Positions 7,860-29,403 of a DNA stretch of 64,000 nucleotides are shown here, one piece after another (positions within the stretch are counted from its first letter, which is position 1; each line of letters begins with the position of its first letter). This DNA is from a virus (taxonomy: Duplodnaviria; Heunggongvirae; Uroviricota; Caudoviricetes). The notes under the pieces are model-generated. The model worked only from the letters and a program-made list of their open reading frames with translations, had not been told where the DNA came from and did no database searches. Made by a program: the position numbers and the translations under genes. The stretch spans positions 201,787 through 265,786 of the IMG/VR virus record IMGVR_UViG_3300015214_000024; one strand, written 5' to 3'.

Positions 7860-7895
7860 TTGACACGGAATAAATAGTTTTGTAAAGTATAAATA
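7860..7895 (+). promoter_or_regulatory. overlapping sigma70-like (TTGACA-N17-TAAAGT) and T4-late-like (TATAAATA) promoters for the tRNA array
   Basis: motifs at 7860-7865, 7883-7888 and 7888-7895. Confidence 0.65.
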
Positions 7896-7939
7896 CATTA
7901 GCGCAGGAAGCGCATTTTAAAAGGAATAGGGAACTTCAA

Positions 7940-8044
7940 ATGTTTACGAAATTTGGACAATTTAAGGGACAGAAAGCTGTTGCGACAGTCGCAGCGGATC
8001 GTATGACCTTTGATTGGGCCATTACGGAGGGTGTTCGAGAATAA
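7940..8044 (+). CDS. 34-aa attenuator leader peptide MFTKFGQFKGQKAVATVAADRMTFDWAITEGVRE
   Basis: AGGGA RBS, ATG to TAA, immediately followed by antiterminator/terminator. Confidence 0.75.
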   Translation: MFTKFGQFKGQKAVATVAADRMTFDWAITEGVRE

Positions 8045-8106
8045 AGTTTAAGAAAAAACTTAATTCGAAGGGCACCCGGGAAAAGGAAACTTTCCCGGGT
8101 TTTTTA
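8029..8106 (+). terminator. attenuator: intrinsic terminator 8074-8105 with competing antiterminator 8029-8077
   Basis: ACCCGGGAAA/TTTCCCGGGT plus T run; GGGTGTTCGA pairs with TCGAA(GGG)CACCC, which overlaps the terminator 5' arm. Confidence 0.8.
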
Positions 8107-8116
8107 TTACTTAAAT

Positions 8117-8191
8117 GGACGATTAGCTCAGCGGTAGAGCGGCACCTCGACACGGTGAAGGCCACTGGTTCAATCCCAGTATCGTCCACCA
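8117..8191 (+). tRNA. tRNA-Val(GAC), C at position 33
   Basis: cloverleaf, loop TCGACAC, CCA. Confidence 0.85.
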
Positions 8192-8198
8192 AATATAT

Positions 8199-8273
8199 GG
8201 CCCTGTAGCTCAGTGGTAGAGCGGTAGACTGAAAATCTGCGCGTCGGCAGTTCGATCCTGCCTGGGGCCACCA
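8199..8273 (+). tRNA. tRNA-Phe(GAA)
   Basis: loop CTGAAAA, CCA. Confidence 0.95.
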
Positions 8274-8452
8274 AGTGGAAATGCGGAACGAGACCGCTGG
8301 TAACCACTTTAAATAAACCTAAATGGGCGTGATGTGGATGAAATTGGTGGCGGTAACACCAAGAGTAAAAATCATCAATAGAGGACAAAATGATCCTCTA
8401 TAGCGGTCAAGCCAAAACGCTGGCAATATAGATCGCTGGATACAAAAGCGAA
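8274..8452 (+). ncRNA. candidate multi-hairpin RNA between tRNAs
   Basis: AGTGG/CCACT, GCGG/CCGC, TAGAGGA/TCCTCTA hairpins. Confidence 0.35.
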
Positions 8453-8457
8453 AATAT

Positions 8458-8531
8458 GGTCCTGTAATTCAATGGTAGAATAGCCGCCTGATAAGCGGTC
8501 AACGAAAGTTCGATTCTTTCCTGGACCACCA
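8458..8531 (+). tRNA. tRNA-Ile(GAT)
   Basis: loop CTGATAA, CCA. Confidence 0.92.
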
Positions 8532-8544
8532 ATTTATTTTGACG

Positions 8545-8616
8545 CGCGAAGGACAAGATGGTTAGTCACAGGTCTCATAAGCCTGATCCTGGTGGGTTCG
8601 AGCACCACTCTCGCAA
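8545..8616 (+). tRNA. tRNA-Met/Ile2(CAT), divergent
   Basis: CAGGT-CTCATAA-GCCTG; weak acceptor with C1:A72. Confidence 0.7.
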
Positions 8617-8622
8617 CAAAAT

Positions 8623-8696
8623 GGCTCTATGATATATGGGTATTATGCTTGACTGTCTATCAGGCAAACCGGGTTCGAGTCCCGGTAGAGTCGCCA
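8623..8696 (+). tRNA. tRNA-Asp(GTC)
   Basis: loop CTGTCTA, GCCA end. Confidence 0.88.
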
Positions 8697-8699
8697 ATT

Positions 8700-8775
8700 G
8701 CCCCAAAAGCTCAACTGGAAGAGCAGACCGCTTCTAACGGTAAGGGTGTGGGTTCGAGTCCTACTTGGGGCGCCA
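8700..8775 (+). tRNA. tRNA-Arg(TCT)
   Basis: loop CTTCTAA, GCCA end. Confidence 0.9.
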
Positions 8776-9127
8776 ATTACTGTTTCGGAGGATAACGAAA
8801 TGACTATGCAGGAAGCAAGAAGCTAAAATTAGGAAAAAAGTTCAAAAAAATGGTTCCACTTTATAGGCATTTTGCTCGAGAGTGGGAAGAAGAACTTGAT
8901 TTTAGTGAAGAAATGCTGTATGAATTATACTTAAACGAGTCAAAAGGAATTGGCTCCATAAGTAGGACCAACGGTTTTGCTCACGGAAAGAAGATTTTAA
9001 GCATTACTGTTGAGATGTGGAAAGAGGATCTTTGGATAACATTGTTTCCGTGGGAATTATTCGAAGATCCTCAATTACCAGATTGGTGGATCATTAGTGT
9101 ATTCTCAATCGATAAAAAATAGGTGTT

Positions 9128-9532
9128 TTGATGGTTTGTTTAATTTTAGGTGATAGTATAGCAGTTGGTACCCACCAAGCATTGGCGTATCAGCATACTG
9201 AATGCATACGCCAAGCTAAAGTTGGCATTTCATCAAAAGTAATTGACAGGTATCCTGTAGTTGAAAACGCTGACACTGTTGTAATTTCTGCCGGATCAAA
9301 TGATGATCCAAGAAATAATAACGTTCCAACATTTGAACATATCAGGACAAAATATATTGGTAAAAAGGTAGTTTGGATACTTCCTAGAAACCGAACTTTA
9401 GCCAATCAAGTATTACAAGTTGCCAGAAAATATGGTGATGCTTATGTTGATGGTGTTGGGTTTAAGTCAAATGACAATTTACACCCAGCTAGTTATGCAA
9501 GTATGGCTCGGGCAGTCAAAACTAAAATGTAA
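9128..9532 (+). CDS. SGNH/GDSL hydrolase-like protein
   Basis: GDS, G, GSND, DNLHP blocks. Confidence 0.8.
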   Translation: MMVCLILGDSIAVGTHQALAYQHTECIRQAKVGISSKVIDRYPVVENADTVVISAGSNDDPRNNNVPTFEHIRTKYIGKKVVWILPRNRTLANQVLQVARKYGDAYVDGVGFKSNDNLHPASYASMARAVKTKM

Positions 9533-9599
9533 ATTTTCTAAAGAATTGATTCTTTAATTAGTATGGTGAAAGTTTGGCCTGAAAACAAACTTAGAAAAT

Positions 9600-9675
9600 G
9601 GGAAATTAGCTCATCTGGGAGAGCACTTGATTTGCATTCAAGAGGTGATCGGTTCGAGTCCGATATTCTCCACCA
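9600..9675 (+). tRNA. tRNA-Ala(TGC)
   Basis: loop TTTGCAT, G3:U70, CCA. Confidence 0.9.
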
Positions 9676-9679
9676 TTAT

Positions 9680-9786
9680 GTATAGTAAGATCCCAGGGCG
9701 GGTCGACGGATAAATCCACAGTATTCATTTAATGAATATGCTAATGGTATCGTTTTAGGTTGGTTCGATCCCAGCACTATACACCA
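9680..9786 (+). ncRNA. tRNA-like RNA with expanded anticodon arm
   Basis: GTATAGT/ACTATAC acceptor, ACCA end, T-arm GTTGG-TTCGATC-CCAGC, no 7-nt anticodon loop. Confidence 0.7.
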
Positions 9787-9873
9787 ACCAAAGATGCGTA
9801 GGATGCAGATACTTCGATACTTTGTCTCGTACACAAACCAAAAAAAGACTGTATTCGCTTTTATCACTTTGGT
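9787..9873 (+). ncRNA. YrlA/Y-RNA-like repeat copy 1 (anticodon-like hairpin only)
   Basis: GCGTAG...TACTTCG...TTCG...TTTATC scaffold with closing stem. Confidence 0.7.
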
Positions 9874-9880
9874 AATTATT

Positions 9881-10024
9881 TTGATCAGTAGCGTAGGATT
9901 GGGTTACTTCGATTGCAACTCGACCGATGGGGGTTCGATTCCCTCTTCCTCCACAAACTTTATGGGGGAATAGCTTAATGGACAAAGCGGTAAAATTTCT
10001 CGATTCGCCTTTATCTCTGATCAA
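9881..10024 (+). ncRNA. YrlA/Y-RNA-like copy 2 with circularly permuted tRNA-Cys(GCA)
   Basis: order: anticodon arm, T-arm, 3' acceptor, loop, 5' acceptor, D-arm, inside the scaffold. Confidence 0.85.
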
Positions 10025-10032
10025 TCTTTTAT

Positions 10033-10135
10033 GGGGATGCTGGACGCGCCAGCCCTGGGAACCCGGGGTATCCCGCAATTTAAATTAATTTGCTTTGCGC
10101 GCGGCGAGACGGTTCAATTCCGTTTATCTCCACCA
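10033..10135 (+). ncRNA. tRNA-like RNA with Ala identity and no canonical anticodon arm
   Basis: GGGGATG/TATCTCC (G3:U70), ACCA, T-arm. Confidence 0.65.
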
Positions 10136-10147
10136 AAACAAGAAAAC

Positions 10148-10279
10148 GGCAGCGTAACTTAGTCTATACTAGTTAACATTGACTAAGCCATCGAGTGAAA
10201 GTAGTAGAGTTTGGTGTAGGCATACACTTAAAACTGATTTAGTCTCTACATTAATATTGAAGCGGTGATGCTGCCACCA
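10148..10279 (+). ncRNA. closed-stem RNA ending in ACCA
   Basis: GGCAGCGT/ATGCTGCC then ACCA; internal CTTAGTC/GACTAAG and GTAGAG/CTCTAC stems. Confidence 0.55.
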
Positions 10280-10284
10280 ATAAT

Positions 10285-10371
10285 GCCGAGAAAGCTGTGC
10301 GCGGTGCCAGCAGAATCCATAACAGACGATGGGGTGATCCTTAGTAGGCGGTTCGACTCCGCATCTCGGCA
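10285..10371 (+). ncRNA. atypical tRNA-like RNA, anticodon unassignable
   Basis: GCCGAGA/TCTCGGC acceptor, T-loop TTCGACT, 8-nt loop AACAGACG. Confidence 0.6.
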
Positions 10372-10383
10372 CAAATATAATAT

Positions 10384-10455
10384 ACCCCTGCCCACTGGAT
10401 GGGACCTGACGCTACGAACGTCGGTGAGCTGGTTCGAGTCCGGCCAGGGGTGCCA
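10384..10455 (+). tRNA. tRNA-Arg(ACG), shortened D region
   Basis: loop CTACGAA, GCCA. Confidence 0.85.
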
Positions 10456-10466
10456 GAATAATTTGA

Positions 10467-10544
10467 GTCTATATTCTCCCCGGGAAGTCCGTTTAAAACC
10501 CACAAGTCCGGCTAAGACAGGTGCTGGAGGTTCGGAATATAGAC
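10467..10544 (+). ncRNA. small closed-stem RNA candidate
   Basis: GTCTATATTC/GAATATAGAC 10-bp stem between two tRNAs. Confidence 0.45.
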
Positions 10545-10552
10545 CAAACAAT

Positions 10553-10628
10553 GCCCTATTGGTGAAACTGGATATCACAGGACTTTGCGAAGGTCCAGTC
10601 TCAGGTTCGAGTCCTGAGTAGGGCGCCA
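10553..10628 (+). tRNA. tRNA-Arg(GCG)
   Basis: GGACT-TTGCGAA-GGTCC, GCCA. Confidence 0.85.
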
Positions 10629-10639
10629 TTTTAAATTAT

Positions 10640-10727
10640 GGACACGTTGAGCAGTAGGTTGGCTCACCTGACTCTTAATCAGACGCGCGAAAGCGCCTTG
10701 TGGGTTCGAACCCCACCGTGTCCTCCA
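10640..10727 (+). tRNA. tRNA with CTT (Lys) anticodon and long variable arm
   Basis: loop CTCTTAA; GCGC-GAAA-GCGC variable arm; TCCA end. Confidence 0.8.
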
Positions 10728-10977
10728 GTTTGCTTAGGCCTGACTGTAAAGAAGGCCGCCGCGTGGTTAACAAGAAAACGAATTTAAATTCGTCGAAAGT
10801 TGAAAAAGTTGCTAACAGATTTGCGGAGCAACTGAGCACCTGACTTTTAGGTACTCCCCTTTTATTTTGTTTTTCACCATTATAAAAGGCACAATTGGCA
10901 TACCAGGTAGGTTATTAATAACTCCAAAAGTGTCACCGGGTTACTATCTTCCCGGAAATTTAGGAGATAGATAGTTT

Positions 10978-11050
10978 GGGGCCTTAGCTCAGCTGGGAGA
11001 GCGCTTCGATGGCATTGAAGAGGTCAAGGGTTCGATCCCCTTAGGCTCCA
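10978..11050 (+). tRNA. tRNA-Ala(GGC)
   Basis: loop ATGGCAT, G3:U70. Confidence 0.92.
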
Positions 11051-11059
11051 CAAAAATTT

Positions 11060-11142
11060 CGGTATGCGATGGCTGATTGGAGAAGCCTATGACCTGCGCG
11101 GTTATGATAGTGCGCACCTTGGGTTCGATTCCCACATACCGT
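11060..11142 (+). tRNA. atypical tRNA, possible second GCG anticodon
   Basis: CGGTATG/CATACCG acceptor, ATGAC-CTGCGCG-GTTAT, T-arm. Confidence 0.5.
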
Positions 11143-11152
11143 CCTAATTTGT

Positions 11153-11226
11153 TGCCCATTCCTCTAATGGTAAGAGAACTGGCTTTGAACCAGACAATTG
11201 AGGTTCGATCCCTCGATGGGCATCCA
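11153..11226 (+). tRNA. tRNA-Gln(TTG)
   Basis: loop CTTTGAA, CCA. Confidence 0.9.
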
Positions 11227-11311
11227 AATCTTTGAGTAAGTCAAGCACGTGGTAAAGGATGGCGGTGAGCTGATGTGTAGCGTTGCCATCTACTTAACAA
11301 ACAACTTTTAT

Positions 11312-11383
11312 GCTAGTGTAGTTCAGTGGTAGAACGCTGCTCTCATAAGGCGGATGTCGCAAGTTCAATTCTTGCCACTAGCA
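11312..11383 (+). tRNA. tRNA-Met/Ile2(CAT)
   Basis: loop CTCATAA. Confidence 0.88.
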
Positions 11384-11468
11384 CAACAATATATTGAGCG
11401 GTCTAGAACTACGTAAAAGGGGTGGCATAGCTGAGTTCAGCGGCGCCCTTACCGCCAATTAAAAATAT

Positions 11469-11541
<73 letters not shown>

Positions 11542-11543
11542 CA

Positions 11544-11676
11544 TAATCCAGTAGCGTAGGATACAGATACTTCGGTAAAACTTTTGTCTCAGAAACAAAA
11601 CTAGTTGGTTCAAATCCAACAAATATTCCCCGAAAAGGAATATATGTTCTCTGTGTTCGGTCTTATCTCTGGATTA
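11544..11676 (+). ncRNA. YrlA/Y-RNA-like copy 3 (anticodon-like hairpin, T-arm, extra hairpin)
   Basis: same scaffold; TTTTGT-CTCAGAA-ACAAAA, GTTGG-TTCAAAT-CCAAC. Confidence 0.75.
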
Positions 11677-11681
11677 CTTAT

Positions 11682-11754
11682 GGGGCCATAGCTCAGTTGG
11701 GAGAGCGACACACTTGCAATGTGTAGGTCGGGGGTTCGACTCCCCCTGGCTCCA
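11682..11754 (+). tRNA. tRNA-Ala(TGC)
   Basis: loop CTTGCAA. Confidence 0.93.
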
Positions 11755-11755
11755 C

Positions 11756-11897
11756 AAAAACCAGCAGCGTAGAAATGAGTTACTTCGACTGTTAATCGAC
11801 TGGTTGTGGGTTCGAATCCCACTCTCTCCTCCACTATGGAGAGATAGCTCAATGGTAGAGCGGTAAATTTCTTGTTTCGATTTTTTCTCTGGTTTTT
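11756..11897 (+). ncRNA. YrlA/Y-RNA-like copy 4 with circularly permuted tRNA-Asn(GTT)
   Basis: TCGA-CTGTTAA-TCGA, T-arm, TCTCTCC-TCCA, loop, GGAGAGA-TAGCTCAATGGTAGAGC. Confidence 0.88.
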
Positions 11898-11945
11898 CTT
11901 ATACTTAAATTCAATTCCATAAATAAAGATAAAAGGATATCTATT

Positions 11946-12299
11946 ATGCGCTGGAATGAAATTAACGAAGATTCGCCAAGACCGTTTGACAAACCAGCTA
12001 ACTATGCTGCGCCGAAGAGTGATGATGTAAATAAAACAGAAAACGACGAAGCTGGAATAATTTTTGGACATCAAGTGCCTAATTGGGCTATTGATGATGA
12101 TAAAGTTGCAGTTTTTGGGTCTAATTCAAATTTTATGCAAGCTCAAGTTTTTAAATCAAAGTCCGGAAAGTTTTTCGTAGATTTTGGTAAAGAAAGAACT
12201 CAGGAATTTAATTATGCTGGCCAGGTTGAAAATGCTCTAAGAAAGCTGCGAATAACCTCATTCGAGCGTATTGATTATTATAGACCATCGTCCTACTAA
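11946..12299 (+). CDS. hypothetical late protein with internal-protein-like N-terminus
   Basis: MRWNEINE; ATAAATA upstream. Confidence 0.6.
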   Translation: MRWNEINEDSPRPFDKPANYAAPKSDDVNKTENDEAGIIFGHQVPNWAIDDDKVAVFGSNSNFMQAQVFKSKSGKFFVDFGKERTQEFNYAGQVENALRKLRITSFERIDYYRPSSY

Positions 12300-12314
12300 G
12301 AGTGAAATGGAACG

Positions 12315-12992
12315 ATGAGATTCAATGAATTCATAATTGAAAGCAAACAAATAGCATTAGCTAAAAAAGCATTCCAGCAACTTTCTCCCGAAGCTAAGAA
12401 AGCAATCGAGGACTGGGAGTCAGTTAATTGGATTGGTGGCAAGCTTGAGCAGCATTTTAAAGCTAATGATGAAATCGCTCAAGAAATAGAACGAGCTTTT
12501 AAGCCAGTTAGAGATTCAATTCCAGGTCAAACTTTGAAATTATATCGTGGTATAATTTATGATGATAATTTTAAAACCTGGGAAAACAAATATTTGGAAT
12601 CTTGGTCAAGCGATCGACGAGTTGCTGAACATTTTGCTGGACTCCGTAGTAGGCAGAACGGCCCTTCATCACTACATAAGGTCATATCTGAACCAGAAGT
12701 TGACACTCTTGTTAAGAAATATGAAAAAACTGGTTTTTTGAAATATGCTGGCAAATATTATGTACGCAACAAAGACTTACCTCAATATTACAACATTTAT
12801 GACAAGAACAAGCAATTTGTCACAGATGGCGATAATTTGAAAGCTGATCTTATGAGTGACCAAGAATGGGCTAAAAAATCAAACGATTCAAAACTTGCCA
12901 AAGGCGAAGTTATTGAAAAAGAAATTGATAAAAATAAAATAGTTTGGTTAACTAATAATTTGAATTCAAAAGAATACCTTGTTAGAAAGTAA
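12315..12992 (+). CDS. putative ADP-ribosyltransferase, internal-protein-like N-terminus
   Basis: MRFNEFIIE; LYRG, SWS, terminal KEYLV fit the R-S-E ART pattern. Confidence 0.55.
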   Translation: MRFNEFIIESKQIALAKKAFQQLSPEAKKAIEDWESVNWIGGKLEQHFKANDEIAQEIERAFKPVRDSIPGQTLKLYRGIIYDDNFKTWENKYLESWSSDRRVAEHFAGLRSRQNGPSSLHKVISEPEVDTLVKKYEKTGFLKYAGKYYVRNKDLPQYYNIYDKNKQFVTDGDNLKADLMSDQEWAKKSNDSKLAKGEVIEKEIDKNKIVWLTNNLNSKEYLVRK

Positions 12993-12993
12993 T

Positions 12994-13125
12994 TTACAAG
13001 ATTCCAGTGACAAATTGAACAAGTGGAATCCACCAAGTAATTGCCGTGAACGGTGGTGGACACTTTAGTAAATTGGGTCTCACGACGCGGCAACGTCCCA
13101 GGTTCAAGTCCTGGCTGGTAAGCCA
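12994..13125 (+). ncRNA. expanded tRNA-like RNA with possible pseudoknot
   Basis: TTACAAG/CTGGTAA acceptor, GCCA, T-arm CCAGG-TTCAAGT-CCTGG, CCACCA/TGGTGG. Confidence 0.6.
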
Positions 13126-13153
13126 TAAAACTTAGCAATCATCAATATCACAT

Positions 13154-13225
13154 ACCGAAGTAGCTCAATGGTAGAGCGCCGGCTTCCAATCCCGGGCGTT
13201 GTGGGTTCGATTCCTACCTTCGGTG
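13154..13225 (+). tRNA. tRNA-Trp(CCA), mismatch at loop-closing pair
   Basis: loop TTCCAAT, A1-U72, G73. Confidence 0.7.
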
Positions 13226-13240
13226 CAATAAATATATTTT

Positions 13241-13879
13241 ATGAAATATATTATCTATAAAATCACAAATAATTTGGATGGAAAAATTTACATCGGTAAA
13301 CATCAAACAATGAATATTGATGACGGCTATATGGGCTCTGGTAAATTAATCAGACGAGCGATCCAAAAGTATGGTGTTGAAAATTTCACTAAGGAAATTT
13401 TGTTTGTTTTGGATTCTGAAGAAGAGATGAATTTAAAAGAAGCAGAAATTGTCACGGAAGAATTTATAAGCAAAAATAATACTTATAATTTGTGTTCCGG
13501 AGGCAAAGGCGGCTTCTCATATATCAATAGAAATGGGCTTGGAGTTTCAGAAAATCAAAAAGAAGCTTCACGTAAATTTGCCTATAGAAATCTTGAAAAA
13601 ATTAATGCTCCGGAAAATATAGATTTGAAGCGGGCGGCGATGGCTAAAGTTAATCAAATTAGAATTGATCGAGGCATAAAACCATTTCTTGGCAAGAAAC
13701 ACTCAGAAGAAACTATTGCCAAAATGAAAGAATCCAGCAAGGGCAAAAGCACTGGTAGCAAAAATTCGCAATTTGGAACAATGTGGATTACTGATGGATC
13801 AGTGAACAAAAAAATAGATAGGGATTCTATAATCCCAACTGGATGGAAGCCGGGAAGATTGATGAAAAATATACCCTAA
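13241..13879 (+). CDS. GIY-YIG (Seg-like) homing endonuclease with NUMOD3
   Basis: IIYKITN...IYIGKH, YMGSG, HSEETIAKM. Confidence 0.92.
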   Translation: MKYIIYKITNNLDGKIYIGKHQTMNIDDGYMGSGKLIRRAIQKYGVENFTKEILFVLDSEEEMNLKEAEIVTEEFISKNNTYNLCSGGKGGFSYINRNGLGVSENQKEASRKFAYRNLEKINAPENIDLKRAAMAKVNQIRIDRGIKPFLGKKHSEETIAKMKESSKGKSTGSKNSQFGTMWITDGSVNKKIDRDSIIPTGWKPGRLMKNIP

Positions 13880-13944
13880 GTGTTACGGTAGCACGACGAG
13901 TTCCAACCTCGTTAGCGTGGGTTCGACTCCTACAGGGTATGCCA
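13871..13944 (+). tRNA. tRNA-Trp(CCA)
   Basis: ACGAG-TTCCAAC-CTCGT, GCCA. Confidence 0.88.
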
Positions 13945-14016
13945 AATTTAAGGCTTGACTTTGGCCAACCATTAGTGTAAATCAAAAACCTACAACAAAA
14001 TAGTTTGGAGGTTTAA

Positions 14017-14523
14017 ATGAGCACTGCTCTTGCATTTATTACTGGTTTGGCAACTGCCTACCTTTTTACCTGGCCAGCGTTGGCCATTCTTTTCGTCATT
14101 GGTTTGATTTTTGAACACAATCACCGCAGTGGTTGGGCGATTTTCTTTGGTCTTGTGGCAATGTTTGCTGGATATTTTTATTTCGGCCTCACCTTGTCGA
14201 CGGTACTACTTTATGGTGCTGGCTATTTGGGTATTGGTTTAGTTTGGAGTTTCTGGCGTTACGGGCGTTATGTTCGTTCAGAAGTTGCTCGAATTAAGGC
14301 TGATACTTATATTAAGGAAAGCGAATATGCTAGTTATGCTAAGGGCTTGTCCCCAGCTAAGCATATCGGTAAGATCACATCGTGGATTATCATTTGGCCA
14401 CTAAGTGTTGCAAATATGCTTGTTGGTGACATTGTGGACTTTGTCCAGTATGGTGTGACTAAGCTTTTCAAGATGGTTTATGTCAAGATCTATACCAGTT
14501 TGGTTGCTGATCTTATTAAGTGA
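14017..14523 (+). CDS. multi-pass membrane protein
   Basis: several hydrophobic segments, GGAGG RBS. Confidence 0.75.
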   Translation: MSTALAFITGLATAYLFTWPALAILFVIGLIFEHNHRSGWAIFFGLVAMFAGYFYFGLTLSTVLLYGAGYLGIGLVWSFWRYGRYVRSEVARIKADTYIKESEYASYAKGLSPAKHIGKITSWIIIWPLSVANMLVGDIVDFVQYGVTKLFKMVYVKIYTSLVADLIK

Positions 14524-14553
14524 TACGTGATGGGGCTTAGGCCCCATCAAAAT

Positions 14554-14630
14554 GGTTCGTTAGTCGAGTTGGTTAAGACGCTTGCCTGTCACGCAAGAGA
14601 TCACGGGTTCAAGTCCCGTACGGATCGCCA
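14554..14630 (+). tRNA. tRNA-Asp(GTC)
   Basis: loop CTGTCAC, GCCA. Confidence 0.95.
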
Positions 14631-15110
14631 TTAAATTGTCCCCGTATGACGCAGAATATGTTTGAAAGGGAGAATGAGATGATTGAAGAAATTCAAAAGC
14701 TTAAAAATACTAAGGCAGGTTGCCTTGACCCAATGCAGAATTTGATCGCTTGTGAAGTATTTGAACATTCAACCCTTATGGGAGTAGAAGAACTTTACCA
14801 ACAGATGTATCAAGAATATTGGGATGACGCAAATCAATGCGTTGAGGATGAATATGAGGAAGCTATGAAAAATGGTGAAACTTATTACCATCCAGAGTGG
14901 CATAGGTTTGAAATTGGTGAGGTAACTCGCCAAGACGCTATGAAATCTGCGTACCAACAAGGATGGATTAGGTTAATCTATAATCCACTTGAGCAGAAGC
15001 TGTATGCTGAAAGTGTTCAGAAAATTTTAAATTCTCGAAAGGGATATTTAGAATTTATTGCTGAATGTCTGGACAAAGATTGCACTTTGCAACTGTCCGC
15101 TCAAAAATAA

Positions 15111-15266
15111 TTTACCTATAGGGCTGATGAAACTGTATGAAAAATAACAGCATTATCCCTCTTAGTAGTCGCACGGTGCATTACCGCTCCGCCTGCTTGG
15201 GTGTAACCAAGGCAGGAATTATATTCCCCGGCGTGTATGTGATGGTCTCCGCTTCTAGTAGGTAAA
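15111..15266 (+). ncRNA. closed-stem RNA candidate
   Basis: TTTACCTAT/GTAGGTAAA closure, internal CCTGCTTGG/CCAAGGCAGG hairpin. Confidence 0.5.
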
Positions 15267-15270
15267 CGTT

Positions 15271-15341
15271 GGGGCATCTAACGGGTTAGACTCTGCGCTT
15301 GCACCGCGGAAGAAGGGGTTCGACTCCCCTATGCTCCACCA
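15271..15341 (+). tRNA. tRNA-Ala(TGC), shortened D region
   Basis: loop CTTGCAC, G3:U70, CCA. Confidence 0.82.
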
Positions 15342-15896
15342 TTATGAAAGGATCGTTATGAACATTTATAAAATGTTGGATGAGTTCCCGTATGGGATTG
15401 TGGTCCTTGAGGGGGATTATGTTAAGCATATTTGTCTTTATCCTTCAATGCCCACACAAGCTGATGCTGAAGGATTGTACGATGAACTTCAAAAAGATCC
15501 GGAGCACGGAATGATTGGTGAAGATTTATCCAAGATGAATTTTTGTCCAGCCTCTGGCGAATTATTAAAAGAAGCTATAAGGGCATTTTCAAGTGAAAGC
15601 TATGAATAATAAGGATTTTGTAGAATATACCACTGATCCAGATTTATGGCCAGATCTTGTTGAGATCAGTGATATTTTAGTACGCTTCCCATTTTATATG
15701 AAATGTGATCAGTTCTCAGATGCGGTGTTATTGGCTGAACAATTTGACCGATATTTTGAAGACCAAGATTTGTTTATGGTGTGCAGACAATATGATAATT
15801 TTGTTTTCTTTGAGTCAGAAGAAGCAAGGGCTATTGCGGCAATAATTAAATAAAAGTAGTTGACAGACTATAAATAACATAGTAGATTATACAAAT

Positions 15897-15971
15897 AACC
15901 AGCAGCGTAAAATACGGTTACTTCGTTTATTTGGAAAACACACCGTACTGTATTTGACTTTATCTCTGGTT
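15897..15971 (+). ncRNA. YrlA/Y-RNA-like copy 5 (minimal scaffold)
   Basis: CCAGCAGCGTAA...TTACTTCG...TTTATCTCTGG, downstream of TTGACA and TATAAATA promoters. Confidence 0.75.
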
Positions 15972-15974: not shown

Positions 15975-16048
15975 GCGGGATTAGCATAGTGGTAATGCAG
16001 CAGCCTTCCAAGCTGAATAGAGGGGTTCGATTCCCCTATCCCGCTCCA
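15975..16048 (+). tRNA. tRNA-Gly(TCC)
   Basis: loop CTTCCAA, TCCA. Confidence 0.95.
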
Positions 16049-16118
16049 TTAGGACAGTGGCAAGCTGAAAAGCCTAAGTACACGGCGTCTCCTAATTACC
16101 CTTTTAAGGAACTGCATT

Positions 16119-16310
16119 ATGTTTGAGCCATATGCAATTTTAGGACTTTCATTTGAAGAAGCTACTATGCTTGCAAATGAGAATGGATATTCAATTTTAG
16201 TTGAAGTTGAAGATGGTATGTGGTGCGGAGTCGCGCTGGATTATAATTTAAAACGAATTAAAGTTGAAGTTGAAGATGCACACATTGTTAATGTGAAAGG
16301 TTTAGGTTGA
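16119..16310 (+). CDS. small protein resembling I78/potato-type protease inhibitors
   Basis: LGL...DG...LDY...RI.V.V....IV.V...G pattern. Confidence 0.4.
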   Translation: MFEPYAILGLSFEEATMLANENGYSILVEVEDGMWCGVALDYNLKRIKVEVEDAHIVNVKGLG

Positions 16311-16534
16311 TGGATTTTGTATCAGCTGGCACAATGACCCACGAACAAGAATCAAATATTGTTGAATATCAGATTGTTGATATTGATTATTGGGAGCAAG
16401 ATGCTATTTTGTTCATTGGCGGTCAGCGTTTATATTTTCAATGGGATGCAAAAAATCCACCAACATTGATAGATGCTTTGAACTATTTTAAGAATGAAAT
16501 AGATTCAAAATATGGAATAACAAAATAAATTTAT

Positions 16535-16609
16535 GCGGGTGTAGCTCAGGGGTAGAGCATTTCCTTGCCAAGGAAAATGTCGAGGGTTCGAATCCCTTCT
16601 CCCGCTCCA
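16535..16609 (+). tRNA. tRNA-Gly(GCC)
   Basis: loop TTGCCAA, TCCA. Confidence 0.95.
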
Positions 16610-16695
16610 AAAAGCCGCAAGTAGGTTAGTTGAAATAGACTAGAGTGGCATCCGTCCACACTTAAATATTTAAGTGCAAAGGGGATACCTACATT

Positions 16696-16771
16696 GCCTT
16701 TATAGCTCAGCTGGTAGAGCAACTGATTTGTAATCAGTAGGTCCGGGGTTCGAATCCTCGTGGGGGCACCA
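16696..16771 (+). tRNA. tRNA-Thr(TGT)
   Basis: loop TTTGTAA, CCA. Confidence 0.95.
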
Positions 16772-16780
16772 AAATAATAT

Positions 16781-16855
16781 GCCGGTGTAGCACAATGGTA
16801 GTGCAGCGACCTTGTAAGTCGAAGGTTGCGGGTTCGAGTCCTTTCTCCGGCACCA
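16781..16855 (+). tRNA. tRNA-Thr(TGT)
   Basis: loop CTTGTAA, CCA. Confidence 0.9.
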
Positions 16856-17260
16856 AATATAGAAAGTAATTAATATGCAATTGGGTATGATTATTAGTAT
16901 ATTATTTGCATTTGGTGCAATAATTTCTCTTTTTGCACATCATCATTACAGTAAAAAATTTAAAAAACTCCCAACAGGACCAGAGCAGGATCATTTTCGC
17001 AAACTTGCAATGATCACATTGGGAATGATCGCAGGCTTTGCGTTGGCAGTATTTGTTTCATCGTCAACTATCGATGATCGCAAACCATACCAATATCCTA
17101 TTATAGACCGAATTGATATTCAATATCAGTATGAATATATTGATGTTTGGGAAAATCCTAAGACTAAGTGTAGATATTTAATACACCATACTCGACTATC
17201 AACATCAAAACCTGAAATAAATTACCTACCCTCCGGTAAGCCAGATTGTCCAGAAAACAG

Positions 17261-17488
17261 ATGAAATACTTGACAGATGGTGCAAGACACCTTATATGTG
17301 ATCCATATTCAATAGAAAATCTGCATAAAATGGCAGATGATTTGGATATAAAACGATGTTGGTTTCACGATGGGAAATTTCCACATTATGATATACCAAA
17401 GCGTAGAATAAATGAAATTGAGGCTAAATGTGAAATAATAAAATCTGAAGATATTATTCGAATTATTAAAAAGACAATGCCACTTTAG
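17261..17488 (+). CDS. DUF4031-like protein
   Basis: HL...ENLHKMADDL.IKRCWFH...HYDI. Confidence 0.7.
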   Translation: MKYLTDGARHLICDPYSIENLHKMADDLDIKRCWFHDGKFPHYDIPKRRINEIEAKCEIIKSEDIIRIIKKTMPL

Positions 17489-17553
17489 CAATCTTGGTGA
17501 TGCGGACGGTTGAAGCCCGTCTCAGACTGGTTCGAAACCAGTAGGTGGCACCA
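17479..17553 (+). tRNA. tRNA-Phe(GAA), divergent
   Basis: GACGG-TTGAAGC-CCGTC, CCA. Confidence 0.85.
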
Positions 17554-17836
17554 AAAAAGCCTATCGAGGTTCACTCCGTGCCAGTGTAGCAAAACGGAGA
17601 GTTTGAGTTTTCGAGCTTTCTCATTCCTTAAGAAAGGATCTGTAGTGCAGCGTTATCGAGTTGAAATATGGATAAAACGCGGTGATTGTGGTAAATGGGA
17701 AACTGATTTTACTTCTGATGATTTGAATCATATTCAGCAAGTCCTTTCAGGAAGACAGAAACCACTCAAGGATCCTATTAGAATTTTAATGATTGAAGAT
17801 ATTACTAGCTTTTTTGAGTTAGTTTAAATGGGTTGG

Positions 17837-17911
17837 TGCGGGGTAGAGCAGTCAGGTCAGCTTGCGAGTCTCATAAACTCGAGGTCGTTGGTTCAAATCC
17901 AACCCCCGCAA
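17837..17911 (+). tRNA. tRNA-Met(CAT), initiator-like body
   Basis: TGCGGGG/CCCCGCA, loop CTCATAA. Confidence 0.85.
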
Positions 17912-18159
17912 CTAGAAAGGAATTGATTATGTCAAATGCCGAAGTAATATGGGAAAGCAAGTTGGATGACAAATGGGACTGTATTGTCACTCGAGTATCT
18001 GAATATCAAGGCCGTTTAATTGTTTCTGATAAAGATGAAATTATTTTAAATGAAAGTGTGCCATTAGCATATGGTGCTGCTTTCGGACCAGATATTGACG
18101 ACGTTGCCCAATGGCAAGACAAGTGCGTCGAGGTCGTGGACAAATATCAAATGAATTGA

Positions 18160-18234
18160 CGCGGGGTAGAGCAGAGGCAGCTTACTTGGCTCATAACCAA
18201 GTGGTCGGGGGTTCGAGTCCCTCTCCCGCAACCA
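18160..18234 (+). tRNA. tRNA-fMet(CAT)
   Basis: C1:A72 mismatch, loop CTCATAA, ACCA. Confidence 0.88.
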
Positions 18235-18324
18235 ACTATATTCTGTTCACAAAACGGCGTGGGGATGCTCGCGTGATCATAGCGCTCACTGATCTGAACG
18301 GGAAAACACCTACAGAATATAGTT
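18235..18324 (+). ncRNA. closed-stem multi-junction RNA candidate
   Basis: ACTATATTCTGT/ACAGAATATAGT stem enclosing three hairpins. Confidence 0.55.
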
Positions 18325-18327
18325 AAC

Positions 18328-18400
18328 GCTTTGTAAGCATTGCTGGCGATGCGCCGGATTCGTAACCCGGAGATAATGAGTTCGATTCTCGTACAAAGCA
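18328..18400 (+). tRNA. tRNA-Thr(CGT)
   Basis: loop TTCGTAA. Confidence 0.85.
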
Positions 18401-18401
18401 C

Positions 18402-18577
18402 GGGCCTGAACGCCAAGGAGGAATGGCAACGCAGGAAAGGAGCGTCGGGGTAACACCTAACGCGCATTAAATCTAGGTTGAGGTATTTTTGTAGCTCGTG
18501 GTAGTTCCTAAATCAACCGAAAGCCCTTGGTAATGCTTGGGTTGCGCTAATCGCCGGTTCGAATCCGGTCGGGTCCA
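18402..18577 (+). ncRNA. 176-nt tRNA-like RNA with Ala identity and large inserted domain
   Basis: GGGCCTG/CGGGTCC-A (G3:U70), T-arm GCCGG-TTCGAAT-CCGGT, GCAACGCAGG/CTTGGGTTGC stem. Confidence 0.65.
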
Positions 18578-19153
18578 CAGGGCACCAGCATCTACGCTCT
18601 GCTTTTGAAAATCCTTATTACCCGATAAGGGCGTAATTTATTACCAAAAGTATTCCGGTGCTGCTTCCGATTGATGATTGGGTGTCATTAATCAAACGTG
18701 GAAGGCGCTGGCCGCGAGTCCAGCAAGCAACTTGTGGAGAACAAGAACTCGCTATTTTTTTAAAGGAGAGCAAATATGAAACAGGTAAACTATCGACAAT
18801 GTGGTTTAGCCCAGGATCGCTCTCGCGTAATCGGATGGATCGAAGAGCGCGGAGCCAAAATGGGTGCTCGCGTTGAAATTGAAGAACTTGGCGGCTTTTG
18901 GGAAGTCGTTGGAGTCGGCACCACGGTCCGCACCAAGTCTGAAGTTCAAGAAGCGCAGAACCGCGCTCGTCAACCTTTCTGTGCCTTAAAATCATATAGA
19001 GGTAACAAATAATTGACTTTTTATTGTTCCCTATTGTATTATTGCAATAGGGAACAAGGGTTAATAGTACCAATAGCCAAACCAGTAACCCCGAAAGACC
19101 CACAGGTAGAAATGCCGGTTGAAGCTGTTAGGGCTATTACTTAGGGATTTGAG

Positions 19154-19711
19154 ATGGAATTTAAAAAAGGCGCAATTACTGTAATTGATGATATTTTTAC
19201 TACACAAGATTGTAGTGATATACTTGATTATTACGATAACAATAGACACGATCTAGTACATCGAACAGATCATCGAAACAAAAAATTTCTATCAATTGTA
19301 GATCCTAAAACTAATTTGCCACGTGATGGCATTGCTAAAAATATAGCTATCAAGCTTTTAACTTGGATGGATTTTAGATACCGGATCGAATGGGGTCATA
19401 TTGAAGAGCGTGAACCGGGTTCCCATTTGCCATACCACTACGATTTACATTCAAATAGTACGGTTTTCACATCTGTCACATATTTGAATGATGATTATGA
19501 TGGCGGTTATACTATCATTAGACCGCACGGTGAAGAAAGTGATAAGTATAACATTAGAGTAATTCCAAAGGCTGGAAGAACTGTGTTCTTTCACGGTGCA
19601 TACAATTACCATTGTGTAACTGAAGTAGAGAAAAGTAATAGGTACGTGATACCAATGTGGTATATGTTTATGCCTTTGGACTTGCCAGAAAAACTTAAAT
19701 GGTGGATTTGA
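19154..19711 (+). CDS. 2OG-Fe(II) oxygenase
   Basis: HYD, YLNDDYDGG, HCV, R. Confidence 0.9.
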   Translation: MEFKKGAITVIDDIFTTQDCSDILDYYDNNRHDLVHRTDHRNKKFLSIVDPKTNLPRDGIAKNIAIKLLTWMDFRYRIEWGHIEEREPGSHLPYHYDLHSNSTVFTSVTYLNDDYDGGYTIIRPHGEESDKYNIRVIPKAGRTVFFHGAYNYHCVTEVEKSNRYVIPMWYMFMPLDLPEKLKWWI

Positions 19712-19715
19712 TAAA

Positions 19716-20273
19716 ATGGAATTCAAAAAGGGATCTATCAGTGTTATAGATGATATTTTCACACAAGACGAATGCTCAAGGCTGATAAAATATTATAATG
19801 ATAATTTTGATAGAGCTATAATTCGCCCAGATTATCGAAATTTAAAATTCCTTGAAATTGTAAGTCATTATGACCAAAAGCCTTTTGATGATTTTTGTAA
19901 AAAAAATGTATCAAAAATTATGGATTGGATGGATTATCGATACAGGATTCAGCGCGCTCACATAGAACGTCGCCATCCAGGATCGTATATGAAGTGGCAT
20001 TTGGATTCAGCTTTTGATTTAACGGTTTTTACATCAGTTACATATCTGAATGATGATTATGATGGTGGTCACACTGTAATTAGACCACACGGTGATGAAA
20101 CTGACGATCACAATATTGAAATAGTACCAAGAGTTGGACGAACTGTATTCTTCCACGGTGCATATCACGATCATTGTGTGAGCGAAGTGAGCGGGGGAGA
20201 GCGATATACCATACCAATGTGGTATATGACTATGCCGCCAGATCTTCCTGATAAACATAAATGGTGGTTATAA
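19716..20273 (+). CDS. 2OG-Fe(II) oxygenase, tandem paralog
   Basis: HLD, YLNDDYDGG, HCV, R; same length as neighbour. Confidence 0.9.
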   Translation: MEFKKGSISVIDDIFTQDECSRLIKYYNDNFDRAIIRPDYRNLKFLEIVSHYDQKPFDDFCKKNVSKIMDWMDYRYRIQRAHIERRHPGSYMKWHLDSAFDLTVFTSVTYLNDDYDGGHTVIRPHGDETDDHNIEIVPRVGRTVFFHGAYHDHCVSEVSGGERYTIPMWYMTMPPDLPDKHKWWL

Positions 20274-20279
20274 AATCAT

Positions 20280-20366
20280 ATCTCGGTAATGCTCAAAGGT
20301 AAGAGCTAGGACCTGTCGTATCAATATAGGCAGGCCTGGATGCAGGTTCAATCCCTGTCCGAGGTG
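20280..20366 (+). ncRNA. tRNA-like RNA with elongated anticodon stem
   Basis: ATCTCGG/CCGAGGT, D-arm GCTC/GAGC, T-arm, CCTGTC/GGCAGG extension. Confidence 0.65.
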
Positions 20367-21046
20367 CAAACGGCAAAAACTGGATTGGTACTGGTTGACA
20401 TACGCCAATTCAGATATTAGAATGAAGGCCAATTTAAGATACTATAAATTGGTTGTTTTGCCACCAATAGGAGAAAAAATCAATGGGACATCGTAACAAA
20501 GAGCGTATTGATTTCTCCAATTTTAAACGAATGGAAGCATTGAAACTTCCAGCAAATCGTGATGAATGGTTTCCTGCTCATCGCCAAAATGATTGTTTAG
20601 AAATCTATCTCAGCGAAACGATGGATCATAAGAAAAACTTCTTAACAGTGGTCGGCGTGAACGATGGCGATGATGGATATATTGTAAAATGGTTTGATGG
20701 GCACGACAATCCGGATGCTTTTGAATTATTCACAAGATTGATGAATATGGAAATCATATTTAAAAAGAATCTATATGATTTAGGAATGTATGATGACTAA
20801 GCCATATAAAATAATGCAGATAGCAAGTAATGATGATATTGAATATTTTGGTCGGTCATTATCTAAATCAATGAACGTTGAATTACCAAGATTGCTGATG
20901 CTTAGTGAAGTTGAAGCGATTTTGTCGAAAATGCACAATAATAAAGTGCAGGTCAGTTCAATTGTTAAAGACACTATTGAAGAACGATATATTGTTTTTC
21001 AAGACGAATTAACATATTGTGAATTTATGTTATTGGTATAAAATTT

Positions 21047-21120
21047 GGGAGTATAGCACAACGGTAGTGCGTCCGACTGATAATCGGCCGATCCAAGTTC
21101 GATTCTTGGTATTCCCACCA
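21047..21120 (+). tRNA. tRNA-Ile(GAT)
   Basis: loop CTGATAA, CCA. Confidence 0.92.
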
Positions 21121-21121
21121 T

Positions 21122-21195
21122 TGCCCTTTCCTCTAATGGTAAGAGACGCGGCTCTGAACCGTTCAATCGGGGTTCGAATCCCTGAAGGGCATCCA
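21122..21195 (+). tRNA. tRNA-Gln(CTG)
   Basis: loop CTCTGAA, CCA. Confidence 0.9.
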
Positions 21196-21272
21196 TTCAC
21201 CAATCAGTATCCAGCGCTGAATAAGATTGGACTAAGGTAGCGTAAAAATTAACCGCGCGCTAGGTTGGTGAA

Positions 21273-22094
21273 TTACTTTTTCTTCTTTTTCTTTTTAGAA
21301 TATTTGGCCCAAGCAAAGCCAACTATCGGAATGAGTAACGACCCCCAAGCCCATTCCCAATTGGCAGATAACCATTTGGTTATGCGTTGCTTGGTAGTAA
21401 TGTTTACATTTACTTTACCAACGTATGTGTCTAAATATCGTTCAGCTTTTTCGCCATCAACTGTAATAATAGCCGTTACTGTAATTTTAACTTCTTTGCC
21501 TGGTCCGCTGGAAAGTGGCTTTAGTGACCATTTCCAAGTTGTATCCTGATCACCCATAATAATTTGACGCTGTGGTGTAAGATTGATCACGTCAAAGTCT
21601 CTAGCCTCAAGTCTAACTTCGACAATTCTAGATATTTGGATGTTTTGAGTAATTTGTTGCCCTTCTGGTAAATGTTCTTTCAACTGATCTATTGAAATTG
21701 AAGGATTGATTTTCACCACAACTTCGATATCATCATTAATGTTTGCTTCTTGTGGAACGCTATATCCAAAAGATGATTGCGATAACTGTCGAGCGATGTC
21801 GTCAGATGAAAATACGCTTTTAGTTGGTAATTCGGATCTGTTGGTTTGTGCTGTGTGAATGCTTGTATTTTCTTGAACACTACTAGCAGGTTCTATATTA
21901 TTTAAATATTCATAATTATCACTAATTGACTGCTCATTGGTGTAGTCTTCAGCGGTTTCTGTGGTGACTTGTTCAGATTGTGAATCAAGTTGATAGCCTA
22001 TATTCGAGTGTTCATACTGAATATTTTTCATTACTGCGCATCCAGTACATAGACTGCATATTAATACGAATAAAAATAGACTTAGTTTTTTCAT
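21273..22094 (-). CDS. putative lipoprotein with C-terminal membrane anchor
   Basis: signal peptide with CTGC lipobox-like motif, C-terminal TM then poly-K; TATAAATA upstream. Confidence 0.7.
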   Translation of the reverse strand: MKKLSLFLFVLICSLCTGCAVMKNIQYEHSNIGYQLDSQSEQVTTETAEDYTNEQSISDNYEYLNNIEPASSVQENTSIHTAQTNRSELPTKSVFSSDDIARQLSQSSFGYSVPQEANINDDIEVVVKINPSISIDQLKEHLPEGQQITQNIQISRIVEVRLEARDFDVINLTPQRQIIMGDQDTTWKWSLKPLSSGPGKEVKITVTAIITVDGEKAERYLDTYVGKVNVNITTKQRITKWLSANWEWAWGSLLIPIVGFAWAKYSKKKKKKK

Positions 22095-22118
22095 TCTGTT
22101 ATTTATAAGGATAACTAT

Positions 22119-22202
22119 TCTCCCTACTACTGGTAGGTCTAGTAACGTGACTTTGAATCACGGGTGCGCGGACGCGCAAAGGTTCGAATCCTTGAGGGAG
22201 AT
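22119..22202 (+). tRNA. tRNA with TTG (Gln) anticodon and long variable arm
   Basis: CGTGA-CTTTGAA-TCACG; GCGC-GGAC-GCGC arm. Confidence 0.78.
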
Positions 22203-22221
22203 CAAATTTGAGGTATTGATA

Positions 22222-22905
22222 ATGAAAACTTTTACATATGCTATTGGAGATATACACGGTCGATTGGACCTTTTGGTTAAATCGATTGAACTGATTGAGC
22301 ATCACCGTTTACAGAATGATGCATATGCTATAGTTGTATTTTTGGGAGACTACGTTGATCGTGGCCCGAACAGCAAAGAAGTGTGTGATATTTTAATGGC
22401 CGGACCAAATACTGAAAATACTGAATGGATTATACTCCAAGGAAATCACGAAATAATGTTAATTGAAGCTGGTCTAGGCGGTTTTTCTGAACAGAAATTT
22501 TGGCTTAATAATGGCGGTCAAGAAACGCTTAGCAGTTTTGGTGGCTATCGGGAAATGATTCCATATATCAAATGGATGCAAAATTTAACAAAATATTACT
22601 ATGATGGTGAACGTGTATTTGTTCACGCTGGCATTAAAGACGGTGTTCCATTAGAGCAAACGCCTGAGGCTGTGTTACAATGGATAAGATATCCTGATGA
22701 ATATGAGCCTAATTCCCCTTTAGGTTATTTGGTTCACGGTCACACTCCTAAAATGGGCCAGCCTTTGATTCTAAAAACCAGGTGTGATTTAGACGTCTGG
22801 GGAGTCGCTACTGGTAAAGTATGTGTTGGCGTTTTTGAAAAGGGCATCCCGGGCGGCCCGATTGATTTATTGGAAGCCAATATGGGATATAGAGCACTTG
22901 ACTAA
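22222..22905 (+). CDS. Ser/Thr protein phosphatase (PphA/NinI-like)
   Basis: GDIHG, GDYVDRGPNS, GNHE, HAG, HGHTP. Confidence 0.92.
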   Translation: MKTFTYAIGDIHGRLDLLVKSIELIEHHRLQNDAYAIVVFLGDYVDRGPNSKEVCDILMAGPNTENTEWIILQGNHEIMLIEAGLGGFSEQKFWLNNGGQETLSSFGGYREMIPYIKWMQNLTKYYYDGERVFVHAGIKDGVPLEQTPEAVLQWIRYPDEYEPNSPLGYLVHGHTPKMGQPLILKTRCDLDVWGVATGKVCVGVFEKGIPGGPIDLLEANMGYRALD

Positions 22906-22956
22906 CTAGGTCATCTTTGCTATATCAATGGGTGTGATTAACAGTAAGGAAATATA

Positions 22957-23532
22957 ATGACAATTCTCCGTTGGGATAAACCGAAAAAAGTGATGACCGC
23001 CCAGCAATGGGGTGAGCATTATGGTTTTGATGGCGGCCCCATTGGTGGTTATGCCCCAAATATGAGTGAAGCTGACCAGCTTTCCTGGAAAGCCAAAATC
23101 ACCGGTAAAAAACTTGGATTCCCGCAGGTAGAGATTCGAAAGACTACTGAACGTGGTAGTCAGGTAGTAATTATTATCAATTTGGGCGCTGGATATAATT
23201 ACAAGTATTATCGAGCGGTTGATGATGATTATACTAAGTACGCTGATTATGCTGATTATTTGGCACAGGAAGGTGCCCATTATCATCAAAAATATCCTCA
23301 ACAATATCCCACTCTTCAGGATGGCATTGATTTTATTTCCGAATGTGGTGATGAAGAAGGATTTTGGCGTTGCAAATATCCCACGAAAGGGATCAATGTT
23401 CATATAGCTACGAACGGCCCAATTCAAATGACTTTTGATGAAATGATGGATATGCAAAAGGCCATTGAAGAAGCAAAAGTAGCACTTACTAGTTTAGAGA
23501 TTGCACCAAGCTATGCTAAAAAAACTGGCTAA
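22957..23532 (+). CDS. hypothetical protein
   Basis: 191 aa ORF with RBS and upstream TTGACT promoter. Confidence 0.7.
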   Translation: MTILRWDKPKKVMTAQQWGEHYGFDGGPIGGYAPNMSEADQLSWKAKITGKKLGFPQVEIRKTTERGSQVVIIINLGAGYNYKYYRAVDDDYTKYADYADYLAQEGAHYHQKYPQQYPTLQDGIDFISECGDEEGFWRCKYPTKGINVHIATNGPIQMTFDEMMDMQKAIEEAKVALTSLEIAPSYAKKTG

Positions 23533-24131: not shown

Positions 24132-24138
24132 AATATAT

Positions 24139-24211
<73 letters not shown>

Positions 24212-24212
24212 C

Positions 24213-24397: not shown

Positions 24398-24400
24398 AAT

Positions 24401-24476: not shown

Positions 24477-24520
24477 GATAAATATTTGTACTTTGAGGCA
24501 CAAATAAAGAGGATCATCAA

Positions 24521-29384: not shown

Positions 29385-29403
29385 CAAATGATAGGAGAGA
29401 ATA

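Follow-up and report, generated by a model that had tools for sequence, protein, structure and literature searches.

The stretch of DNA analyzed here, called the window, is 64,000 nucleotides long (C1:201787-265786, G+C 39%). Positions marked C1 are those of the whole 455,147-bp virus record, IMGVR_UViG_3300015214_000024, and all other positions are those of the window. The window carries an array of tRNA genes headed by a cassette with a short leader open reading frame (ORF). Sequence and RNA folding models indicate that this cassette is very probably a multivalent, ribosome-mediated transcription attenuator that turns the array ON under a shortage of charged tRNAs for its 12 amino acids. The codons of the leader match the tRNAs behind it, a modelled antiterminator competes with the terminator, and three sister cassettes in the same genome and further cassettes in related phages repeat the match.

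Anatomy of the leader cassette

A promoter, ribosome binding site, 34-codon ORF (7940-8044) and terminator (8074-8105) were all found where an earlier note on this DNA had placed them (Table 1). The first tRNA gene, Val(GAC), starts at 8117. The sigma70-like promoter elements are TTGACA (7860-7865) and TAAAGT (7883-7888) with a spacer of 17 nt, matching the consensus at 10 of 12 positions. TAAATA was present at just 8 of the 165 TTGAC-type sites genome-wide, and three of these 8 stand at the start of attenuator cassettes. In the fourth cassette the promoter elements are the same but the -10 element lies outside the TTGAC-type search pattern. TTGAC and TAAATA were found again at all three sister cassettes. 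The 5-bp core (7981-7985/7989-7993) of a candidate pause hairpin is retained in relatives L366 and L372.

Table 1. Positions of the leader cassette, the tRNA blocks behind it and other leaders.
Feature	Position	Strand	Details
Composite promoter, putative	7860..7895	+	sigma70-like -35/-10 with T4-late-like TAAATA elements (7870-7876, 7888-7895); from sequence
Shine-Dalgarno (SD)-like purine stretch	7921..7933	+	includes AAGGA 7921-7925; AGGA retained in orthologues
Leader ORF	7940..8044	+	34 codons, of which 2-28 form the sensing zone in the model and 30-34 share sequence with the 5' arm of the antiterminator
Hairpin within leader ORF	7977..7997	+	candidate RNA polymerase pause hairpin (speculative)
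Antiterminator hairpin	8029..8077	+	-21 kcal/mol; sequesters terminator 8074-8077; from folding
Intrinsic terminator	8074..8105	+	10-bp stem 8074-8100 (-16.7 kcal/mol), T run 8100-8105; from sequence
Proximal tRNA block	8117..15800	+	Val, Phe, Ile, Met, Asp, Arg, Ala, Lys, Gln, Trp, with interspersed ORFs
Internal composite promoter-like site	15860..15900	+	leader-promoter type, 115 nt 5' of tRNA-Gly(UCC); no leader ORF, no terminator
Distal tRNA block	15975..29385	+	all Gly and Thr tRNAs; further Phe, Met, Ile, Gln, Lys, Val, Arg
His/Tyr/Glu leader	C1:180103	+	21 codons; 9/14 own-block residues, P=5e-6
Leu/Pro/Asn leader	C1:191195	+	28 codons; 15/20 own-block residues, P=4e-8
Ser leader	C1:300358	-	15 codons; 7/11 own-block residues, P=3e-6
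Phosso leader	PV764938.1 419754-419918		CDS 599, annotated hypothetical; followed by a terminator, then more promoter-like sites before the first tRNA

Codon composition and the tRNA array

ARAGORN predicted 34 tRNA genes at 8117-29385, and these covered exactly the 12 amino acids that had been claimed. The claimed absence of Leu was true of standard Leu tRNAs; a degenerate Leu(CAG)-like remnant is present at 11566-11628 (Rfam, 29.3 bits). The array also holds a Met(CAU)-like gene at 8543 and a degenerate Ala(UGC)-like element at 15271. Several tRNA-like elements depart from the usual form or are degenerate, with unusual arms or anticodon loops; they lie at 11060-11144, 11566-11628, 15271-15338, 22119-22203, 34204-34268 and 48948-49016 of the window and at C1:290.2 kb.

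The array's amino-acid set accounts for 31 of 33 leader codons (P=3.1e-5). For codons 2-28 the figure is 27/27 (62% expected, P=2.5e-6), and all of these codons are readable by array anticodons with standard wobble. No equally pure 27-residue window was found among 99,717 from the real proteins of this phage. The presence of all 12 amino acids, given this purity, was not rare by itself (9%). The earlier note had also read the synonymous codons as a sample of the isoacceptors. This was upheld for 17 of 21 anticodon types before the switch and failed for the rest; Arg(UCU) and Val(UAC) are never sampled, and Gly(GCC) and Arg(UCG) are sampled in the tail only. Tracking of tRNA order and copy number by leader codon order and count was rejected (rho -0.27 and 0.05).

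Folding and ribosome-stall model

Folding predicts an antiterminator that overlaps the terminator as proposed, in another register than the bulged one of the earlier note. The model pairs 8029-8036 with 8070-8077 (two G-U pairs) and adds two inner helices. It seizes only four basal terminator pairs and is finished before the terminator 3' arm is transcribed. Masking of its 5' arm allowed the full terminator to form again, as had been expected. A ribosome footprint was then masked codon by codon. Basal terminator pairing was at most 0.13 with codons 5-27 in the A site, about 0.5 at Ile28 and 1.0 from Thr29. The switch point was confined to codons 27-30 across footprints of +9 to +18. Because the modelled switch lies at codons ~28-29, both Glu codons would fall outside the sensing zone. 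Glu had been left as the lone leader residue foreign to the array, and the position of its two codons at or past the switch explains this.

Recoded or shuffled leaders rivalled the full terminator equally well in only 1-3% of cases. Arm sequestration in a transcript truncated before the terminator 3' arm was rejected as a statistic, since 23% of synonymous recodings also paired with the C-rich arm and the focal switch was barely resolved. The full-terminator test was therefore used instead. There is no protector hairpin and the antiterminator 5' arm stays free to pair in naked RNA, so the default when untranslated is predicted to be ON.

Sister cassettes in the same genome

Further leaders rich in the remaining amino acids had been predicted, and three were found heading other tRNA blocks (Table 1). 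Each fits its own block only. The four tRNA blocks have no amino acids in common (permutation mean 15, minimum 8), and the four cassettes jointly sample 19 amino acids, Cys alone being without a cassette. In the sister leaders the matching codons stop just 5' of the modelled switch, and the tail codes a purine-rich arm that pairs with the terminator. A genome-wide scan for a promoter, an SD-led short ORF and a terminator gave five matches, four of which head tRNA blocks.

Several synthetase genes lie near these cassettes. Three codons of the Ser leader are for Ile; 3' of this leader, on the same strand, come ileS and lysS (C1:297529-293386). A short leuS (421 aa) is located within the Leu/Pro/Asn block (C1:196112-197377). 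Just 5' of thrS, at C1:178752-178830 (+), is an ORF of six codons, three of them for Thr. It has a strong SD and a 13-bp hairpin behind it, and is a candidate Thr-sensing leader. The 16-codon ORF at C1:297634-297584 (-) has four Ile codons and its RNA pairs extensively with the ileS start region, making it a candidate translational attenuator of ileS.

Orthologous leaders and related phages

A search of protein representatives identified syntenic orthologues of the leader (P0001, P0005 and P0003), followed by Val, Phe, Ile and Asp tRNAs. Close orthologues were 74-82% identical. The ORF frame was kept, with single-base indels solely outside the ORF and one 3-nt deletion inside it. Ten of 11 distinct replacements in the sensing zone stayed in the set (49% expected, P~0.005), the exception being Thr3 to Asn. 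Glu34 was variable. The outer six antiterminator pairs were invariant, and one compensatory change (A-U to U-A) was seen at 8041/8064. In relatives L368 (1714-2238) and L369 (1082-1606) the terminator and the first array tRNA are separated by an inserted ORF of 174 aa.

The expected covariation of leader composition with array content was borne out by comparison with the genomes G001-G004 and Sinorhizobium phage Phosso. The main tRNA blocks of G002 (543 kb) are Thr/Asn/Phe/Met/Ile/Ala/Arg/Lys/Gly/Val/Cys/Trp and Gln/Tyr/His/Leu/Ser/Pro. Of the 52 residues of G002 leader A, 49 belong to its own set, all 12 types among them, and 0 to the other set. In the second leader 22/40 residues are in its own set (P=5e-4), again with every one of its six types. 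Compared to the phage of the window, Gln and Asn have switched blocks in G002 and leader A follows, with Asn and Cys in and Gln out. G001, G003, G004 and Phosso each have a single mixed array and a single leader with 18-20 amino-acid types. In the G001 leader a run of 18 codons encodes 18 distinct residues, an outcome seen in none of a million simulations, and the other single-array leaders gave P=0.003-0.035. The Phosso leader is without Cys, and the Cys tRNAs of Phosso lie outside that array. Amber suppressor-like tRNAs with a CUA anticodon are repeated in the group (C1:15281 and 165512 in this genome; G001, G003, G004, Phosso and GAP32), mostly outside attenuated blocks.

The block-matched leaders and their covariation bear on a second reading of the same switch, as a general sensor of translation health. 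Any slowing or block of the ribosome (initiation failure, ribosome-targeting toxins, uncoupling) would then induce it, and the codon match would add little specificity. The tendency of naked RNA to the antiterminator, the lack of a trp-like protector hairpin and the predicted untranslated ON state are consistent with this, as are the amino acids represented by one codon and the all-amino-acid leaders, which would report the whole pool. Such a sensor is nevertheless unlikely; it would have no need of four block-matched leaders, and leader compositions follow re-partitioned arrays while replacements are confined to the set.

A terminator-only pattern search gave 44 viral matches. In all eight that were followed by tRNA genes, representing about four lineages, a leader ends 27-36 nt 5' of the stem. 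The same kind of search found nothing in metagenome contigs, and a promoter-SD-start pattern was too loose to discriminate. The distance from leader stop to U-run was 52-59 nt in 14 of 16 cassettes, and the terminator arm pairs with the ORF 3' end in nine of the ten modelled. The fetched tRNA regions of GAP32 and Vibrio phage 2.275.O contained no convincing cassette; the trait is therefore not universal in the group.

The homologous leaders L345 and L362 differ by 13 nonsynonymous and 4 synonymous codon changes and retain all 20 amino acids (joint chance ~2%), with Lys and Glu repositioned. Selection therefore appears to act on the repertoire and not on the peptide sequence. This counts against a functional product acting in trans, either the peptide or a terminated ~210-nt RNA, as does the lack of any common peptide sequence in the four leaders of this genome. 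There is alphaproteobacterial precedent in rnTrpL and peTrpL of Sinorhizobium meliloti (PMC6614838, PMC7968998), and the identity among close orthologues would suit such a product. As the explanation of the cassette it is extremely improbable; a secondary trans role beside cis attenuation is possible.

Probable extent of control over the array

No TTGAC-type promoter was found between the terminator and 15860. A weaker promoter-consensus match is present at 10353, inside the proximal block. Within the distal block, promoter-like sites occur at 19013, 20395, 25244 and 25826, and a hairpin resembling a terminator lies near 25525-25555. Together with the composite site at 15860, these sites and the hairpin suggest that the attenuator acts mainly over the first 7-8 kb; it is doubtful that its control reaches the distal part of the 21-kb array. 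Outside the attenuated blocks no leader was found for Val(UAC) (4713-4786), Arg(UCU) and two Cys tRNAs (window 55528-55602 and 60611-60921).

Internal promoter-like sites would also serve a constitutive terminator that is bypassed from them or by a phage antitermination factor, the ORF being incidental or vestigial. Pairing alone is unremarkable, given the recodings that pair with the C-rich arm in the truncated transcript. The composition statistics, four-fold recurrence, covariation, frame conservation and fixed spacing argue against a bypassed terminator and make it very improbable.

Contigs from two straw metatranscriptome samples (one study) cover 7884-9078 and 7912-8141, across the terminator. 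They are only compatible with read-through, and weakly so, because strand, ends and level are invisible in them and DNA is possibly present. Two items were left out of the evidence, the stretch 5' of 7884 that these contigs leave uncovered and a variant contig of low depth from soil.

Proposed mechanism and points against it

Sequence and computation show the anatomy, competing hairpins, codon-array match and covariation; from these we infer leader translation and induction, for which host anticodon nucleases are a possible trigger. RNA polymerase would start near 7882-7897, and a coupled ribosome would translate the leader. Fast decoding of codons ~5-28 would bring the ribosome over 8029-8036, the full terminator would form and transcription would stop at ~8105. 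When a cognate charged tRNA is scarce the ribosome would lag, and the earlier-transcribed antiterminator would seize the four basal pairs, giving read-through into the tRNA genes. Newly made tRNAs would relieve the stall, a negative feedback. The shortage may come from host tRNA cleavage, phage demand or starvation. Each of the four cassettes would gate the block with matching tRNAs. The chances are about even that the cassettes form a jumbo-phage surveillance regulon, in which block-specific leaders detect tRNAs removed by a host defence nuclease or by the phage's own demand and resupply just that block.

A number of points weigh against the attenuator and its multivalence. Translation, termination and induction of the leader are predictions. 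The equilibrium margin depends on the folding boundary, with basal terminator pairing of 0.08-0.54 in naked RNA, and the antiterminated fold still keeps six terminator pairs. The full terminator wins at equilibrium in all three sister cassettes, so the sister switch would need kinetic control. An ORF-dependent switch was not seen in the model of G002 leader A. Four of the 21 array anticodons are unsampled before the switch. Met, Arg, Trp and Ile have a single codon each in the sensing zone, Ile28 being at its edge. Asn is at codon 3 in both relatives and there is no Asn tRNA in the visible part of the array. Every Gly and Thr tRNA sits past the internal promoter-like site at 15860, and no leader goes with the Val(UAC) at 4713 or with the Cys tRNAs. 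Many of the comparison loci are akin and hence not independent.

Genome context

The source phage is a T4-like jumbo phage. In its major capsid protein it shares 69.5% identity with Phosso and ~65% with the GAP32/CBB jumbo phages. The whole record has ~70 tRNA genes and encodes ThrRS, a short LeuRS, class I LysRS, IleRS, SerRS and GluRS. The nearest relatives of the LysRS (44-47%) are from Sphingomonadales and other Alphaproteobacteria, a weak hint of an alphaproteobacterial host. BLASTn matches to cultured phages were confined to tRNA genes. A related-locus search found no relatives of the ORF at 8850-9122, returned distant, non-syntenic loci for the glycosyltransferase query and two loci with little information for thrS.

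A metallophosphoesterase-GT4 glycosyltransferase gene pair (5365-7199) lies 5' of the leader cassette. A GIY-YIG/NUMOD3 endonuclease gene (13241-13879) is located within the array. A PEP-CTERM protein gene (29404-30105) directly follows the final array tRNA.

Comparison with known systems

By sequence and modelling, the cassette has the class-level anatomy of a ribosome-mediated attenuator. A short SD-led ORF is located between the promoter and the regulated genes, and an intrinsic terminator (10-bp stem and T6) between the leader and the first gene. The control codons are cognate to the downstream supply, here as in the three sisters and G002. In silico, a competing antiterminator has a 5' arm that is covered by a ribosome at the leader end. 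The amino-acid operon attenuators (his, trp, leu, phe and the multivalent thr and ilvGMEDA) share with it a short leader ORF with control codons, an antiterminator opposed to an intrinsic terminator, and read-through upon stalling. The trp, leu, phe, thr and ilvGMEDA leaders follow the same attenuation logic as his. The phage cassette differs in that it would control phage tRNA genes, not biosynthetic or synthetase genes. Its leader uses mostly dispersed codons for 12 amino acids, whereas trp, his, pheST, thr and ilv leaders have tandem runs of 1-3 control codons; among the leaders of this genome only that for Ser has a codon run. The his attenuator shows stall-driven read-through and is OFF by default when untranslated (PMC4046918), in contrast to the ON default predicted here. 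No match to Rfam leader families was found (His_leader 12.9 bits, cut-off 49).

The leader peptide of Escherichia coli pheST responds to charged tRNA for one amino acid and regulates synthetase genes, which are part of the translation machinery. The likeness lies in a leader that would sense charged tRNA and in the synthetase genes associated with the Leu/Pro/Asn and Ser cassettes. The difference lies in the tRNA genes and the four-cassette regulon. T-boxes resemble the cassette in having a terminator/antiterminator switch that answers tRNA charging. They differ by binding uncharged tRNA directly, with no translated leader. The T-box elements (Stem I specifier loop, T-box bulge antiterminator) had no Rfam match at gathering or E<=10. 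A ribosome-based sensor would fire on tRNA destruction too and a T-box would not. A T-box operon of Clostridium may include tRNA genes. Dual-specificity T-boxes are known (PMC4052509). The phage cassette is not a member of the thr/ilv/pheST-type families or of the T-boxes, as far as its sequence and modelled folds tell.

The purpose of phage tRNAs is a long-standing question (PMC13015707). The tRNA-Lys of T5 counters PARIS by replacing host tRNA cut by the defence (PMC11464382). The tRNA-Tyr of T5 and SP15 counters retron-Eco7, the SP15 tRNA being driven by a strong promoter (PMC11555353). Expression level matters in this counter-defence (PMC11464382, PMC11555353). The phage cassette shares the theme of tRNA replacement and adds leader and attenuation, terms with no matches in either of these papers; PMC13015707 is likewise silent. 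No account of tRNA genes controlled by an attenuator came out of a literature search in which few subscription papers were within reach. Control by an attenuator that reads the codons of these same tRNAs would mean that the tRNA genes were selected as on-demand replacements, and the inducing condition would reveal the selective pressure behind phage tRNAs. The surveillance regulon, if true, would amount to a counter-defence that is inducible and corrects itself, with leaders that also record the threatened tRNAs. A cultured phage, Phosso (PV764938.1), carries a cassette, and the ~250-nt module could be used as a reporter of tRNA-pool damage. As read from the sequence, tRNA genes under control of the trp operon style would be a new variation on the known attenuation mechanism, which would then reach beyond amino-acid and synthetase genes to tRNA genes and sense 12 to 20 amino acids.
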